Assembly (NCBI GenBank): GCA_964596395.1
Contig: CAZQSY010000007.1
Coordinates: forward strand, 1-35,484
Direction of reading: 5' to 3'
Length of the DNA: 35,484 nt
Source of the DNA: an uncultured Candidatus Saccharibacteria bacterium
GTDB taxonomy: Bacteria > Patescibacteriota > Minisyncoccia > Phycocordibacterales > UBA9973
This document shows, piece after piece, positions 10,213 through 31,856 of this stretch. Each line of letters starts with the position of its first letter. Within the stretch, counting starts at the first letter, position 1. A program made the position numbers and the translations under genes. The notes beneath the pieces are model-generated. The model was not told the origin of the DNA. It saw only the letters and a list, made by a program, of their open reading frames with translations, and searched no databases.

Positions 10213-10683
10213 ATGCTAATCGGGGAATACATCCACACGATTGACGACAAGAACAGGGTTTCAATGCCTTTCAAATTTCGCAAGGAGCTCGGCAAGAAAG
10301 TGGTCATAACGCCCGGCCTTGAATCGTGTCTCTTTGTTTTTACCGCCGCGGAGTGGAAGAAGGTCTCGAAAAAACTCTCCGGCTCTGATGCAGAACTTTC
10401 TTTCTTAAAAGCCGACCAGCGAAGTTTCAATCGGTACATGTTCGGACGCGCGGCAGAAGCCGAAATCGATTCAATCGGCAGGGTCTTGATTCCGGATTTT
10501 CTGAAACAAAAAATCGGGCTCAAGGACAAGGCGGCGATAATCGGCGTCGAAGACAGAATTGAAATCTGGAACGAAGAGGCCTGGTCGCAGAACAAGGAGG
10601 CCGTAGAGAAACAGGCGGCGGAGCTGGCAGAACATCTCGGCGGCGGAGAAAAGAATGAAAGAATTTACCGGAAGTTTGCATAA
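10213..10683 (+). CDS. mraZ: Transcriptional regulator MraZ
   Basis: The duplicated SpoVT/AbrB-like halves carry DDKNRVSMPFKFR and DSIGRVLIPDFL. Confidence 0.93.
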   Translation: MLIGEYIHTIDDKNRVSMPFKFRKELGKKVVITPGLESCLFVFTAAEWKKVSKKLSGSDAELSFLKADQRSFNRYMFGRAAEAEIDSIGRVLIPDFLKQKIGLKDKAAIIGVEDRIEIWNEEAWSQNKEAVEKQAAELAEHLGGGEKNERIYRKFA

Positions 10684-11575
10684 GGCAGTTCTTTTAAAAG
10701 AAACAATACAGGGCTTAGGCCTGAAAAAAGGCGCCAGGATTCTGGACGCCACATTCGGCGGCGGGGGACACTCGCTCTATGCGCTCGAGAATTTCCCGGG
10801 GACGGAAGTAACGGCGGTTGACCAGGATGCGGGAGCATGGAAGAGGGCAAAGGGAAAGTTCGCGGGTTTTGAAAAAAGAATTTTTTTCAGAAACATGAAC
10901 TTTCGGGATATAGACAAGCTGGCCCAAGGCGGCTTTGACGCAGTAATCCTCGACTTAGGCATTTCTTCAGACCAGCTCAACCCGAATCCGGCGGCCGGAG
11001 GCGCTTCCGGGAGAGGATTTTCTTTCATGGTATTGAGCGAACCGCTCCTCATGACCATGAAAGAAAATCCTTCTCCGGAGGACCTCTCTGCCATGGATGT
11101 GCTAAACGATTGGAGCGAGCAAACTCTGGCCGACATAATTTACGGCTACGGGGAAGAAAGGTACGCCAGGCGAATCGCCAAAGGCATCGCCGAAGCAAGA
11201 AGAAAGAAAAAAATCGAAACGGTCGGCGACTTAGTCGCGATTATCGAAAGGGCCGTGCCGGCGGGGTACAAGCGAGGCAGGACGCATTTTGCCACCAAGA
11301 CCTTTCAGGCGATTCGAATTGCGGTAAACGATGAACTTCGCGCCCTGAAAGAAGGATTGGAAAAAGGTTTTCAAGTTTTGAAAAAGAACGGGAGAATCGC
11401 GGTAATTTCTTTTCACAGTTTGGAAGACAGAATCGTAAAAAATTTTTACAAGCAAAAAGAAAAGGAGAGTGTCGGAAAAATTATAAATAAAAAGCCCTTG
11501 GTGCCCGGTGAAAAAGAGAGAAAAGAAAACCCGAGGTCAAGAAGCGCAAAACTTAGAATTTTAGAAAAAATATGA
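10655..11575 (+). CDS. rsmH: 16S rRNA (cytosine1402-N4)-methyltransferase RsmH
   Basis: H.AVLL.E....L......LDATFGGGGHS, DLGISS.QL, RGFSF and SFHSLEDRIVK motifs. Position directly after mraZ. Confidence 0.93.
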   Translation: MKEFTGSLHKAVLLKETIQGLGLKKGARILDATFGGGGHSLYALENFPGTEVTAVDQDAGAWKRAKGKFAGFEKRIFFRNMNFRDIDKLAQGGFDAVILDLGISSDQLNPNPAAGGASGRGFSFMVLSEPLLMTMKENPSPEDLSAMDVLNDWSEQTLADIIYGYGEERYARRIAKGIAEARRKKKIETVGDLVAIIERAVPAGYKRGRTHFATKTFQAIRIAVNDELRALKEGLEKGFQVLKKNGRIAVISFHSLEDRIVKNFYKQKEKESVGKIINKKPLVPGEKERKENPRSRSAKLRILEKI

Positions 11576-19516: not shown

Positions 19517-20149
19517 TCCTACATGCATACTGTACAAATCTTAAACAATCTGGTGGGCGAATATCATACGCTGGCCTATCTGGTAATTTTTCTCGGCCTC
19601 ATTTTTGAGGGCGAGGTGGTGGTGCTCACTGCGGGGGTGTTGTCTCAGCTCGGGGCGCTCAATTTTTGGCCTTCGCTCGTTTTCATTTTTGCCGGGGGTA
19701 TGGTCAAGACCTTCGGCGGGTATTGGCTTGGCACATGGTTCGCCAGAAGGTATAAAGAAAATCATTTTCTGCGCGCGCTCGAAAGAAGAATTCTGTATTT
19801 CATGCCGAATTTTCGGAAGAAACCCTTCTGGTCTATTTTTCTTTCCAAGTTTATAATGGGAGTGAATTATCTGGTAGTTGTTTTTTCGGGATACCAGAAA
19901 GTAAATTTGAAAAATTATTTGCGGGCGGAAATTCTTTCAACACTCATTTGGGCGCCGGCTTTGCTCGCTCTCGGGTTCTTTTTCAGTCAGACGGCTCTGT
20001 CTATCACCAAAGAAATCGGAAAGTTTTCGCTGATAGTTGTTATCTTTGTGGCCGTGTTTTTGCTTTTCGATAAACTGGCCGCGACTTTTTACCGGGTGGT
20101 GCAGTATATAAAAAGTTTTAGCAATGGAAATGGAAACAGAGAAAAATAA
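19508..20149 (+). CDS. DedA/VTT-family membrane protein
   Basis: Multi-TM protein with the DedA-type motif YLVIFLGLIFEGE. The start is uncertain (GTG 19508 or ATG 19523), and neither has a clear SD. Confidence 0.75.
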   Translation: MFASYMHTVQILNNLVGEYHTLAYLVIFLGLIFEGEVVVLTAGVLSQLGALNFWPSLVFIFAGGMVKTFGGYWLGTWFARRYKENHFLRALERRILYFMPNFRKKPFWSIFLSKFIMGVNYLVVVFSGYQKVNLKNYLRAEILSTLIWAPALLALGFFFSQTALSITKEIGKFSLIVVIFVAVFLLFDKLAATFYRVVQYIKSFSNGNGNREK

Positions 20150-21059
20150 AAAAATATTGGTGACACACAACGGGTCTTTTCACGCCGATGATATTTTTGC
20201 CGCCGCGGCGCTTTCTTTGTATTTAGAAGGAAAGAGAGAAGATTTTGAAATAATCCGCACCCGCGACCCCGAAACGATAGAAAAAGGCGACTATGTTTTT
20301 GACATTGGCGGGATTTACGATCCCGAGAAAAACAGGTTCGACCACCACCAAAAGGGCGGAGCAGGCAAGTGGGAAGGCGGCCTGCCGGCGCAGGCGGGGA
20401 TAGAGTACGCCGCCTTCGGTCTGGTTTGGAAAAAGTTCGGACTGGGGCTTGCCGGCTCGGAAGAAGCAAAAGAAATCATAGACGAAAAACTGGTAGCTCC
20501 GATAGACGCGGGCGACAACGGCTTGGATTTAGAGGAAGAAGAAAGCGAGCACGCGATTTCTCCTTATTACATTCAGCATTTTTTTTCTTCGATGAGGCCG
20601 ACTTGGCGCGAAGCGAACATAAGCGCCGACGAAATGTTTTTAAAATGCGCGGAAGTGGCGAAAGAAATATTGCGCCGGGAAATTATTCAGGCAAAAGATT
20701 TTCTTTTGGCCGAAGAAAGAGTCGCGCATATTTATCGCGAGACCAAAGACAAACGGCTCATAATTCTAGACCAAGATTATCCGCACGAGTATGTTTTGAG
20801 AAATTTCCCCGAACCACTCTTTGTCGTGTATCCGAGGACCACCTACGGCACCTGGGGCGTGAAGGCCGTGCGCGATAATCCTAAAACATTCAAAAACCGT
20901 AAAAACTTTCCGGCTCACTGGGGTGGTTTGCGCGATGAAGAGCTTCAAAATGTTACCGGTGTGAAAGACGCTGTTTTTTGCCACAGAGGGCTTTTCTTGG
21001 CGGTGGCGAAATCCAAAGAAGGCGCGCTGGCACTGGCGAACCTCGCGTTGAAAAACTGA
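20124..21059 (+). CDS. MYG1/UPF0160 family metal-dependent hydrolase
   Basis: VTHNGSFHADDIFA and NRFDHHQ motifs. 311 aa. Confidence 0.85.
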   Translation: MEMETEKNKKILVTHNGSFHADDIFAAAALSLYLEGKREDFEIIRTRDPETIEKGDYVFDIGGIYDPEKNRFDHHQKGGAGKWEGGLPAQAGIEYAAFGLVWKKFGLGLAGSEEAKEIIDEKLVAPIDAGDNGLDLEEEESEHAISPYYIQHFFSSMRPTWREANISADEMFLKCAEVAKEILRREIIQAKDFLLAEERVAHIYRETKDKRLIILDQDYPHEYVLRNFPEPLFVVYPRTTYGTWGVKAVRDNPKTFKNRKNFPAHWGGLRDEELQNVTGVKDAVFCHRGLFLAVAKSKEGALALANLALKN

Positions 21060-21064
21060 ATTGG

Positions 21065-21208
21065 GCACAAAGAAAATAAAAACCTAATTTTTTGTCGGTA
21101 CGGAATTTTTGAAGCTTTAAAATTCCTGAAGTTGGCTCGCCGTCCCTGCCTGCCGGCAGGCAGGGCTCGCCAAACCCCTTAAAAAATTTGTTTTTGTTTT
21201 CTTTGTGC
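21065..21208. repeat. 144-nt composite nested palindrome (MITE-like or structured-RNA-like) between the MYG1 gene and obg
   Basis: Outer arms GCACAAAGAAAATAAAAAC (21065-21083) / GTTTTTGTTTTCTTTGTGC (21190-21208), 18/19 complementary. A second pair is AATTTTTT (21086-21093) / AAAAAATT (21181-21188). Two inner hairpins: GGAATTTT...AAAATTCC (21102-21126) and the perfect 22-bp palindrome CCCTGCCTGCCGGCAGGCAGGG (21144-21165). Confidence 0.7.
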
Positions 21209-21233
21209 TGGAACTTTATGGTAACATCAAGCT

Positions 21234-25856: not shown

Positions 25857-27623
25857 GTGAAAGACGAAATTAAAAAAATTTTCAGGGGGGGAGTGGAGGA
25901 TGATGAAGAAACGCTTATGAAATATTCGCGCGACGCGAGCATTTTTGAAGTGCGGCCGAAGATGGTGCTTTTTCCGCTCGACTCGGAAGACGTGAAAAAT
26001 TTAGTGAAATGGGTTTCGGAAAATAAAGACAAATACAATCTTTCAATCACTCCGCGCGGCGCGGGGACGGACATGTCGGGCGGAGCGATTGGCGAATCGT
26101 TGATTTTGGATTTTACCAGACACATGAATAAATTAATTTCTTTTAAATCCTCAAAGCATGCGGGTTCAGCTTTTTCTTCTATTACTGTCCAACCCGGCAT
26201 GTTTTACCGAGATTTTGAAAAAATAACTTTAAAAAAAGGGCTTATTTTGCCTTGCTATACGGCTTCAAAGAATTTGAACACGATCGGCGGAATGTTCGGA
26301 AACAATTCGGCGGGGGAAAGGACGCTTAAATACGGGCAGACAGAGGATTACGTACTTGAGGCGAAAATTGTTTTGTCGGACGGGAATGAATACACAGTGA
26401 AGCCGCTCTCTCAGAAAGAACTCCAAGAAAAAATCGTACGGAACGATTTTGAAGCGGAAATTTATAAGAAGATTTATGAACTGGTAAACAAAAACAGGGA
26501 AGAAATAAAACACGCCAAGCCGGGCGTGCATAAAAATTCTTCGGGATATTTTATATGGAATGTAGTGAACGAGGGACTGCACGATTTTCGAAATTGCGCC
26601 CTCGGAGACAAAAGGACAGGGAACCCACACGTTTCTGAAAATCGTGCAGTCCCTCGTTTTGATTTAAACAAATTGCTGGTCGGCTCGCAGGGGACATTGG
26701 GAATAATGACCGAGGTGACTCTTCGGCTCGTACCGAATCCAAAATATTCAAAGCTGGTGGTAATTTTTCTCAATGATTTGGAGCCCCTCGGCCGTCTGGT
26801 TGACGAAATATTGAAGGAAAATCCTGAAACTCTAGAATCCTACGACAATAAGACGCTGAAACTCGCCGTAAAATTTTTCAGGGATTTTATGCGGAACAAG
26901 GGAATAGCGGGTATGACAAAATTTTTATGGAATTTTTTGCCCGAGTTTAAAATGCTTGTGTCGGGCGGGTTCCCGAAGATGATTCTTTTGGCCGAATTTT
27001 CGGGCGAGAACGAGGCCTCGGTGCACGAGAAATGCGCGTCTCTGGAAAAAAGAATCAGCGTGTTTCGGTTGAAGACGCACATCACGAAGTCGGAAGAAGA
27101 AGCCGAAAAATATTGGGACATCCGCCGGGAAAGTTTTTCCCTGCTTCGGCATCACGTGAAGAAACTCCACACCGCGCCTTTCATAGACGACATCATCGTG
27201 CGCCCCGAGTTTCTGCCGAAATTTATCCCCGAACTTAACGCCATTTTAAAAAAATACAAACTGATTTACACCATCGCCGGCCACGCAGGGGACGGGAATT
27301 TTCATATTATTCCGCTGATGGATTTTTCGCGCTCTGACACGGCCGAAATAATATCCGAACTTTCCGAAAAAGTATACGACCTAGTCTTGAAATATCACGG
27401 TTCGATTACTGCCGAGCACAACGACGGGCTGGTTCGCACGCCTTACCTGGAAAAGATGTTTGGGAAAGAGATCTGCAAAATTTTCAGAGAAATAAAAAAC
27501 ATTTTTGACCCGCAAAATATTTTCAATCCCGGCAAGAAAGTTCCCGTTCCCGGTGCCGCCGGAACGAAAGAGTATCTGACTTCGCATATAATTTCAGAAC
27601 ACAACGTGACCCACAGGGTCTGA
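25857..27623 (+). CDS. FAD-linked oxidase (GlcD/D-lactate dehydrogenase-like) carrying an internal palindromic insert
   Basis: FAD-binding PCMH-type region (PRGAGTDMSGG), LLVGSQGTLGIMTEVTLRL, and C-terminal HAGDGNFH..AEHNDG. GTG start. Confidence 0.85.
   Translation: MKDEIKKIFRGGVEDDEETLMKYSRDASIFEVRPKMVLFPLDSEDVKNLVKWVSENKDKYNLSITPRGAGTDMSGGAIGESLILDFTRHMNKLISFKSSKHAGSAFSSITVQPGMFYRDFEKITLKKGLILPCYTASKNLNTIGGMFGNNSAGERTLKYGQTEDYVLEAKIVLSDGNEYTVKPLSQKELQEKIVRNDFEAEIYKKIYELVNKNREEIKHAKPGVHKNSSGYFIWNVVNEGLHDFRNCALGDKRTGNPHVSENRAVPRFDLNKLLVGSQGTLGIMTEVTLRLVPNPKYSKLVVIFLNDLEPLGRLVDEILKENPETLESYDNKTLKLAVKFFRDFMRNKGIAGMTKFLWNFLPEFKMLVSGGFPKMILLAEFSGENEASVHEKCASLEKRISVFRLKTHITKSEEEAEKYWDIRRESFSLLRHHVKKLHTAPFIDDIIVRPEFLPKFIPELNAILKKYKLIYTIAGHAGDGNFHIIPLMDFSRSDTAEIISELSEKVYDLVLKYHGSITAEHNDGLVRTPYLEKMFGKEICKIFREIKNIFDPQNIFNPGKKVPVPGAAGTKEYLTSHIISEHNVTHRV
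26567..26659. repeat. 93-nt palindromic element in-frame within the FAD-oxidase CDS
   Basis: Perfect 22-nt inverted repeat AACGAGGGACTGCACGATTTTC (26568-26589) / GAAAATCGTGCAGTCCCTCGTT (26637-26658), extendable by one G-U pair at each end. Confidence 0.9.
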
Positions 27624-29781: not shown

Positions 29782-30003
29782 ATGAAGAAAGACATTCATC
29801 CGAAATTTAGTTTAAACACCAAAGCCGTCTGCGCGTGCGGAGCGGTTTTTGAAGTTGGCTCAACTATGGAAGAAATAAAAATAGAAATCTGCAGCAACTG
29901 CCACCCTTTCTTTACGGGCAACGAAAAAGTAATGGATACCGCTGGACGGGTGGAGCGATTTAACAAACGCCGGGCCGCCGCGACTCTGAAAGTGAAAAAA
30001 TAA
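29782..30003 (+). CDS. rpmE: 50S ribosomal protein bL31
   Basis: MKKDIHPKF...C.CG.....S......[12 protein letters not shown]......DTAGRVERF. Start set at ATG 29782. Confidence 0.92.
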
Positions 30004-30004
30004 C

Positions 30005-30111
30005 GAAGCTAGAGCTCCTAAAATTTTTTGTCCCTGAGCCCTTCTTCGGTGCGCTTTAGGTCCCCGAAGCGGGACCCTCGGGTAGCAAAAAATTTTGGGG
30101 CTCTAGCTTTT
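30005..30111 (+). repeat. About 107-nt long imperfect hairpin between rpmE and prfA
   Basis: Outer stem AAGCTAGAGCTCCTAAAATTTTTTG (30006-30030) / CAAAAAATTTTGGGGCTCTAGCTT (30086-30109), about 24 bp with one bulge and one G-U. The GC-rich interior pairs CCC(T)GAG/CTCGGG and CTTCGG/CCGAAG. Confidence 0.7.
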
Positions 30112-31619: not shown

Positions 31620-31635
31620 ATTTCTTTCACAAAAC

Positions 31636-31663
31636 AAAAAAACCACTTCATAGTGGTTTTTTT
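31636..31663 (+). terminator. Rho-independent terminator after the RRM-protein gene
   Basis: AAAAAAACCACT-tcat-AGTGGTTTTTTT, a perfect 12-bp stem with a T-run. Confidence 0.8.
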
Positions 31664-31700
31664 GTTTCTTTTTTGTTATATTTTCCCCATTGAGTATTTC

Positions 31701-31784: not shown

Positions 31785-31856
31785 GAGCGTGTAGTTCAGT
31801 GGTAGAACGCTGTCCTGATAAGACAGAGGTCGATGGTTCGATCCCATCCACGCTCA
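31785..31856 (+). tRNA. tRNA-Ile (anticodon GAU)
   Basis: Acceptor GAGCGTG/CACGCTC, D arm GTTC-AGTGGTA-GAAC, anticodon stem CTGTC/GACAG with loop CTGATAA, T arm GATGG-TTCGATC-CCATC. Confidence 0.92.

Follow-up and report, generated by a model that had tools for sequence, protein, structure and literature searches.

An in-frame palindromic element in an oxidase gene and its probable relatives in bacteria of the Candidate Phyla Radiation

Rickettsia palindromic elements (RPEs), of which RPE-1 to RPE-10 have been distinguished, are hairpin-forming repeats of about 100–150 bp that are found in frame in Rickettsia protein genes (Ogata et al., 2000, 2002; as summarised in PMC10969869). Palindromes that are part of coding sequence have also been described in mitochondrial genes of Nematomorpha (PMC6649704), and among the MITEs (miniature transposable elements with inverted repeats) of bacteria, QMITE1 of Coxiella is described as variable at its ends and conserved in its core (PMC5896051). 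The subject of this text is a 93-nt palindromic element lying in frame in an FAD-linked oxidase gene of an uncultured Candidatus Saccharibacteria bacterium (Patescibacteriota; contig CAZQSY010000007.1 of assembly GCA_964596395.1), of which positions 1 to 35,484, here called the window, were analysed. With good confidence, this hairpin is regarded as one copy of a dispersed palindromic-repeat superfamily in Paceibacteria/Nomurabacteria-type genomes of the Candidate Phyla Radiation (CPR), best explained as RPE-like and MITE-like selfish DNA whose translated copies are tolerated in permissive loops of proteins. The family, which resembles RPEs and MITEs in behaviour, is previously undescribed in CPR bacteria; searches of the searchable literature for CPR/Patescibacteria repeats, MITEs or in-frame palindromes returned no report of such elements, in keeping with a first-pass annotation of the window that knew of no CPR equivalent. 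To our knowledge, in-frame selfish palindromes in essential genes have so far been essentially a Rickettsia curiosity.

The oxidase gene and its insert

The oxidase gene, its two insertion sites and the parts of the element are located as follows, classes being the sequence classes obtained by clustering (see below).

25857..27623, + strand: gene for an FAD-linked oxidase (YdiJ/GlcD-like) of 588 aa, with FAD_binding_4 and FAD-oxidase_C domains
26136..26180, + strand: site 2 of the oxidase gene, residues 94–108, ISFKSSKHAGSAFSS; in orthologs a second hot spot, likewise in frame, of the same element classes
26567..26659, + strand: complete palindromic element of 93 nt, in frame within the oxidase gene; class 1 copy in forward orientation, 'ALG' frame
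26568..26589, + strand: 5' private outer arm, AACGAGGGACTGCACGATTTTC, perfect complement of the 3' arm
26590..26636, + strand: conserved core according to the class alignment, GAAATTGCGCCCTCGGAGACAAAAGGACAGGGAACCCACACGTTTCT
26597–26628, + strand: diagnostic core match inside the element's core, CGCCCTCGGAG-N6-GGACAGGGAACCCAC
26637..26658, + strand: 3' private outer arm, GAAAATCGTGCAGTCCCTCGTT

The two 22-nt arms are 100% complementary and enclose a spacer of 47 nt. G26567 and T26659 can add a G-U pair, and inward, past a 1-nt bulge, about 5 further pairs follow, so that the perfect inverted repeat inside a coding sequence, its terminal G-U pair and its inward extension all stand as they had been read in the first-pass annotation. 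The 107-nt region of the element folds at -48.1 kcal/mol, compared with -25.3 ± 3.3 kcal/mol for shuffled sequences (z = -6.9; none of 200 shuffles equal). With up to 3 mismatches allowed, the arm sequence occurs only at these two positions of the window, where the chance expectation is 0, and no second copy of the arms was found. The annotation had judged the repeat to be beyond chance. A chance palindrome or an assembly artefact is indeed extremely improbable in view of this expectation, of the z-score and of homologous elements in hundreds of independent assemblies. The unit of 93 nt is stop-free and in frame, as had also been claimed, and is read as (V)NEGLHDFRNCALGDKRTGNPHVSENRAVPRF (residues 238–268), between KNSSGYFIWNV and DLNKLLVGSQGTLGI; five of its six reading frames lack a stop codon. 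A scan of the window with Rfam 15 at the gathering score gave tRNAs only and no family at the element, where a permissive threshold gave generic miRNA-hairpin matches only (31 bits against a gathering score of 90).

The best curated relatives of the host protein are the YdiJ-type D-2-hydroxyglutarate dehydrogenase and GlcD, both under the family cut-offs. The best 120 of thousands of homologs are 62–71% identical and range from 557 to 659 aa, and the named sources among those listed are Nomurabacteria, Paceibacterota and other Patescibacteria. In 64 aligned homologs the variation in length is concentrated exactly at the position of the window element, a hot spot designated site 1. This site was compared in 80 orthologous oxidase loci from species-representative genomes (these and other loci being designated by L numbers), by measuring the DNA between the invariant anchors ..GY[YF]xWN and ..LLVGSQG; both anchors are found in 74 loci, giving 75 alleles with the window. 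In all 75 alleles the anchors share a frame without an intervening stop, and the lengths are divisible by 3. The site is empty in 21 alleles (30–39 nt), holds short remnants in 24 (42–87 nt; small hairpins retaining pieces of an inner arm) and holds a long hairpin insert in 30 (105–189 nt). As the distance in the window is 111 nt, against 30–33 nt between WN and LLVGSQG in orthologs with an empty site, the net insertion is about 78–81 nt. Residues ~238–268 are also missing from solved relatives in the PDB. The first-pass annotation had supposed a lineage-specific insertion where GlcD-type oxidases have a short linker, and had proposed looking for empty alleles and for a surface loop in a structural model; the 21 empty alleles bear out the former, and the latter is matched by an AlphaFold2 model (pTM 0.82) in which residues 240–263 lack secondary structure, with pLDDT ~31 (<50). 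The insert is accordingly modelled as a disordered loop in a permissive region of the oxidase.

The long inserts at site 1 comprise at least five sequence classes in both orientations, all in frame. Nearly all fold as a single long hairpin (-23 to -69 kcal/mol), the exceptions without a single stem being L026 (-13.8 kcal/mol) and L044. Their outer stems are wholly different between orthologs, yet near-perfectly complementary, and their inner parts belong to recognisable classes. Site 1 of L061 carries two tandem hairpins.

Copies and classes of the element

A hairpin scan with clustering and profile searches was run over 1.34 Mb of DNA. Cores seen at site 1 turn up again in reverse orientation, at site 2 of the gene and between genes, and clustering yields nine classes with at least two members. 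The window element falls in class 1; the 11 copies clustering with it come from 9 genomes and lie at site 1 in forward (L002, L006, L012, L049) or reverse orientation (L028, L036), at site 2 (L012), and between genes (L001, L002, L011, L030). The profiles find 103 non-overlapping copies of the nine classes, 56 of them non-coding and all others in frame at one of the two oxidase sites. Relatives of the window element measure 70–150 nt.

The class 1 core was also sought in metagenomes with the pattern CGCCCTCGGAG-N(4-7)-GGACAGGGRAYCCAC, which matches at least 120 stretches. Several contigs hold more than one copy, with at least three on the 598-kb contig Ga0265297_10000035 and three in the 11-kb locus L123. 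Among the matches listed, 118 class 1 copies could be evaluated; 81 are non-coding and 37 lie in frame in long open reading frames (ORFs). Hosts of coding copies confirmed by Pfam are RsmH/MraW, MnmA, UvrC, LigA (NAD-dependent DNA ligase), the CCA-adding enzyme, a class II aminoacyl-tRNA synthetase and leucyl-tRNA synthetase. The copy in UvrC of L095 encodes NFRNCALGDKRTGDPHVSKN, nearly the same peptide as in the window, with different outer arms; near-identical cores to that of the window are found in this copy and in L085, L145, L006 and L049. The other copies that the first-pass annotation had suggested seeking do exist: the same core is found at oxidase site 2, between genes and, in frame, in many unrelated genes. 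As separate observations, one MnmA gene of L108 carries two class 1 copies (4217/4730), a whole element is duplicated in tandem in L119 (7813/7924), and the leucyl-tRNA synthetase gene of L107 has a tandem 24-aa duplicate (VDPVRERSPQGDRSTASGRAFSN twice), which may be another element type.

The window contains three elements of three classes, the other two being intergenic or placed directly past a gene.

21061..21212, + strand: class 4 element, 152-nt intergenic hairpin, 2 nt past the stop of ORF 20124..21059 (E = 7e-27; -64 kcal/mol)
30005..30110, + strand: class 8 element, 106-nt hairpin, 2 nt past the stop of a small L31-like gene at 29783–30003 (E = 1e-8; -57.7 kcal/mol)

Relatives of the class 4 element occur in at least nine other CPR loci. 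The gap after the L31-like gene is occupied by classes 0, 3, 5 or 6 in other genomes, which makes it an intergenic hot spot.

Coding copies differ from non-coding ones in a way that bears on their translation. The non-coding consensus contains TGA (TTT-TGA-GCC) in the frame used by the coding copies, where these have GGC, AGC or CGA instead. For the 34 coding copies whose ORF has 200 codons or more, a single frame (..AFALGD..) accounts for 29; four are read in a second frame and one is reversed. None of them uses the frame of the core that is most often free of stops, which is open in 88% of copies. Because the site 1 alleles are in frame and stop-free, the TGA is replaced and one frame is preferred, the coding copies are probably translated with the host protein. 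The alternative mentioned in the first-pass annotation, an intervening sequence excised from the mRNA, or else a segment bypassed by the ribosome, in either case absent from the protein, would suit a stem that brings the ends of the hairpin together, and CPR bacteria are known to carry unusual insertions in rRNA. Frame and stop constraints would, however, be needless for a segment that is removed, and they hold in 75 of 75 alleles at site 1 as well as in the lost TGA and the strong frame bias of the coding copies; nor is there any match to a ribozyme or intron family. Excision or bypass is thus unsupported and very improbable.

Arms, inheritance and mobility

The arms were examined in a gapless alignment of 44 class 1 copies (A2). 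Both sides change in 25 of 30 arm pairs; doubly changed cells number 315, against 114 ± 8 in shuffles (0/500), and the covariation score is 0.576, against 0.164 when shuffled (0/500) and 0.13–0.22 with a slid partner. Columns 18–28 show 3–4 Watson-Crick pair types and not one one-sided (G-U) change. Interior mispairs of the coding copies, counted on gapless diagonals, include 11 G·T and 34 A·C, without enrichment of G·T. Such strictly Watson-Crick covariation is the signature of a palindrome at the DNA level, made or homogenised as an exact inverted copy, and not of RNA-style compensatory evolution. The inner arm (..AAAAATTTYT.. / ..AAAATTTTT..) is common to the copies, and about 25 nt of arm are common to many intergenic ones. 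The outermost arms are private to each copy, and in the 5' arm of the window element only the last ~7 nt (GATTTTC) are conserved in the class alignment. What is mobile or conserved seems to be the core, not the full 93 nt. Copies in MnmA of L108 and L124 prompted the idea that the arms are inverted copies of the host flank; in a four-way comparison the inner arm proved to be derived from the element and the remainder was ambiguous, which leaves the idea speculative.

These data also weigh on the proposal of a regulatory RNA hairpin, likewise raised by the first-pass annotation, taken here as a hairpin specific to the oxidase transcript that would act as an interdomain translational pause, an RNase III site or an attenuator. 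The fold is very stable, it lies between the FAD-binding and cap domains, and TTTTGATTT comes next after the element, all of which speak for such a device. Nevertheless, 21 of 75 alleles lack the element and others have unrelated classes or orientations in its place, copies of it also lie between genes and in unrelated genes, and the arms carry no G-U signature of selection on RNA. Since the element occurs in these other contexts and is not gene-specific, a regulatory role in this gene is unsupported; it is largely refuted by the distribution, and can be given very little credence. Almost certainly, the window element is no regulatory device of this gene but a passenger that the oxidase tolerates in a permissive loop.

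The presence, class and orientation of site 1 elements are scattered over the tree of the host gene. Mean host-gene distance is 0.224 for pairs with the same class and 0.226 for pairs with different classes (permutation p = 0.36), and the nearest filled and empty alleles, L017 and L054, are separated by a protein distance of only 0.05. A single ancient insert that co-diverged vertically with its host was rejected, as class is independent of host distance and identical cores occur across sites and genes. That identical cores occur at different sites and in different genes, and different classes at one site, speaks for repeated gain, loss or replacement.

Site 2, flanked by FTRHMNKLI and ITVQPG, adds to this picture. 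In the window it has 15 aa, against 7 aa in empty orthologs, and no clear palindrome. Other orthologs hold 7 aa, hairpin elements of classes 0, 1, 2, 6 or 7, or an unrelated family of inserts reading GGPLP...WE / GGPLP...NYPLVPSY. In L030 and L002, 'empty' perfect palindromes lie in the coding sequence at this site, with private arms kept and the core gone (in L030, 10315–10356: GGAGTCAGGATGTGAAG-AATT-CTTCACATCCTGACTCC). Such a palindrome is either what the loss of a core left behind or a place into which a core could insert. The site 2 junction AGAATTCT is itself palindromic, which places a direct repeat on both sides of the core and would make its precise loss or gain possible.

According to the explanation preferred here, selfish DNA of RPE-like and MITE-like behaviour, each element consists of a core of ~50–70 nt that is conserved between genomes and has its own interrupted hairpin with conserved unpaired bases, flanked by perfectly complementary outer arms unique to the copy. 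Most copies lie between genes and about one third inside housekeeping genes, where survival would be limited to in-frame, stop-free copies in permissive loops. Such coding copies would be transcribed and translated as a disordered loop of 25–35 aa in the host protein, and the insert would have no specific function for the oxidase. The elements would be present or past mobile non-autonomous DNA (MITE-like), or would have spread between sites by a copy-and-convert process. Their perfect arms would be kept or extended at the DNA level, by intrastrand template switching or fold-back synthesis, rather than by selection for mRNA structure.

Several points weigh against this explanation. The longest direct repeats flanking 127 copies do not exceed the shuffled expectation for target-site duplications, no transposase was found beside or between copies, and the class 1 core had no match in viral contigs. 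In ~1.2 Mb around the oxidase from 80 genomes, in-frame copies occur in the oxidase only. Arms private to each copy are not typical of a classical MITE, in which terminal repeats are shared. That different classes reuse the same sites could indicate targeting or function rather than random insertion with filtering, conservation of the core across distant genomes could indicate a host function, and translation of the insert is deduced from constraints on its sequence. The filled and empty pair L017 and L054 likewise shows no target-site duplication, and the window element is too short to encode a transposase. An autonomous element between the paired copies of L113 and of L157 was considered and discarded, only Obg, DedA, GatA and similar housekeeping genes being present there.

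Some of these points suit motifs that benefit the host, namely a structured DNA or RNA module bound by a cellular protein (a transcript-end or stability element, a nucleoid or replication site, or an uptake signal), kept in position and homogenised by gene conversion, with coding copies as by-products. A core with asymmetric conserved unpaired bases is conserved across genomes whose proteins are only 65–70% identical, many copies lie directly past stop codons (some at 2 nt), the gap after L31 is filled by some class in many genomes, different classes reuse sites, and neither target-site duplication nor transposase was found. On the other hand, no T-run follows the hairpins, both orientations occur, the distribution is patchy among relatives as close as L017 and L054, no Rfam family matches, and mid-gene copies occur in essential genes, in which a terminator or binding site would do harm. 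A host-beneficial motif is on balance unlikely. A terminator-like repeat in particular was rejected because the 10 nt following non-coding copies contain 3.1 T on average, close to background, in a test that is weak owing to noisy hairpin boundaries and the ORF cut-off.

An unusual mechanism of mobility may lie behind the perfect private arms and the recurrent hot spots. It is conceivable, if rather doubtful, that the elements are a new kind of mobile DNA in which the core of ~50–70 nt is the spreading unit, inserted or swapped into the dyad centres of palindromes, or seeding fold-back or template-switch copying of the adjacent flank into a new perfect arm. Such spreading would account for the private Watson-Crick arms, the lack of target-site duplications, the empty palindromes of L030 and L002, and the reuse of sites across classes and orientations, and, if true, would imply a hitherto unknown hairpin-recognising enzyme in CPR bacteria.

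Comparison with described repeats and coding palindromes

The first-pass annotation named RPEs as the precedent. As to behaviour this holds: both kinds of element are hairpin-forming repeats of similar length and occur in multiple dispersed copies (tens per small reduced genome for RPEs), a large fraction of which lie in frame in unrelated housekeeping genes, with a conserved peptide in a preferred frame (for the CPR elements, that of 29 of the 34 coding copies). Both are tolerated where the protein fold allows, and are found at orthologous positions across related species. As to homology it does not hold. The NCBIfam collection includes models of RPE domains, and three insert peptides compared with it gave no match at E ≤ 1, so that the CPR elements are analogues of RPEs and not homologues. 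They have no sequence similarity to RPEs and belong to another phylum (CPR/Patescibacteria); many classes coexist with one architecture, each copy has outer arms of its own, whereas conservation in RPE copies extends along their length, and sites are reused by different classes and orientations. That an independent and far more diverse system exists in CPR bacteria, a further lineage with small reduced genomes, suggests a phenomenon recurring in genomes of this kind. Many unexplained 'lineage-specific insertions' of 25–35 aa in CPR proteins may be such elements, which bear on genome annotation, alignment and phylogenomics of CPR bacteria and serve as natural markers for permissive loops of conserved enzymes. 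Private arms without target duplications point to a palindrome-generating or palindrome-targeting process that is open to study in metagenomic populations.

Bacterial MITEs (Correia, enterobacterial repetitive intergenic consensus or ERIC, BOX/RUP/SPRITE, and QMITE1 and QMITE2 of Coxiella; PMC5896051) resemble the CPR elements as small non-coding repeats with inverted-repeat ends and stable folds; both lie mainly between genes, often 3' of them, and occasionally form in-frame fusions. The CPR elements differ in lacking target-site duplications above chance and, apparently, shared terminal inverted repeats past the inner arm, and their in-frame copies in essential genes are far commoner than is usual for MITEs; no parent insertion sequence was identified, whole genomes not having been searched. 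Repetitive extragenic palindromes (REPs) and their paired form, REPINs, mobilised by REP-associated tyrosine transposases (RAYTs), are likewise short hairpin palindromes that spread without target-site duplications and are recognised as single-stranded hairpins. In REPINs, however, the arms are conserved (REP with GTAG) and the loop is variable, the reverse of the CPR elements, and REPs are extragenic. No RAYT gene was seen in the loci examined, which are not whole genomes. Palindromic amphipathic repeat coding elements (PARCELs) are coding DNA with dyad symmetry that has spread within and between genomes, but they form tandem 25-residue domains in ORFs for surface or membrane proteins, not single hairpins in housekeeping enzymes or intergenic DNA.

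The Nematomorpha genes share with the window element long perfect inverted repeats in functional translated genes, with perfect arms and coding capacity both kept (PMC6649704). In those genes, conserved parts of the host protein are encoded by both arms and the repeats form no dispersed family, whereas the CPR palindrome has been added as an insert that can be dispensed with and that shares its core with other copies. Nearer to the Nematomorpha palindromes than the window element is a strong hairpin at 11006–11079 (-35 kcal/mol) in the RsmH gene of the window (ORF 10655..11575), the arms of which encode the conserved motifs GRGFSFM and LLMTMKENP. This hairpin is present in all seven CPR RsmH genes examined (-13 to -35 kcal/mol) and is not an insert. 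A further perfect hairpin of the window, at 31632–31667, has a 16-bp stem with a 4-nt loop (AAACAAAAAAACCACT/AGTGGTTTTTTTGTTT); lying about 120 nt upstream of the tRNA gene at 31785–31856, it looks like an ordinary bidirectional terminator.

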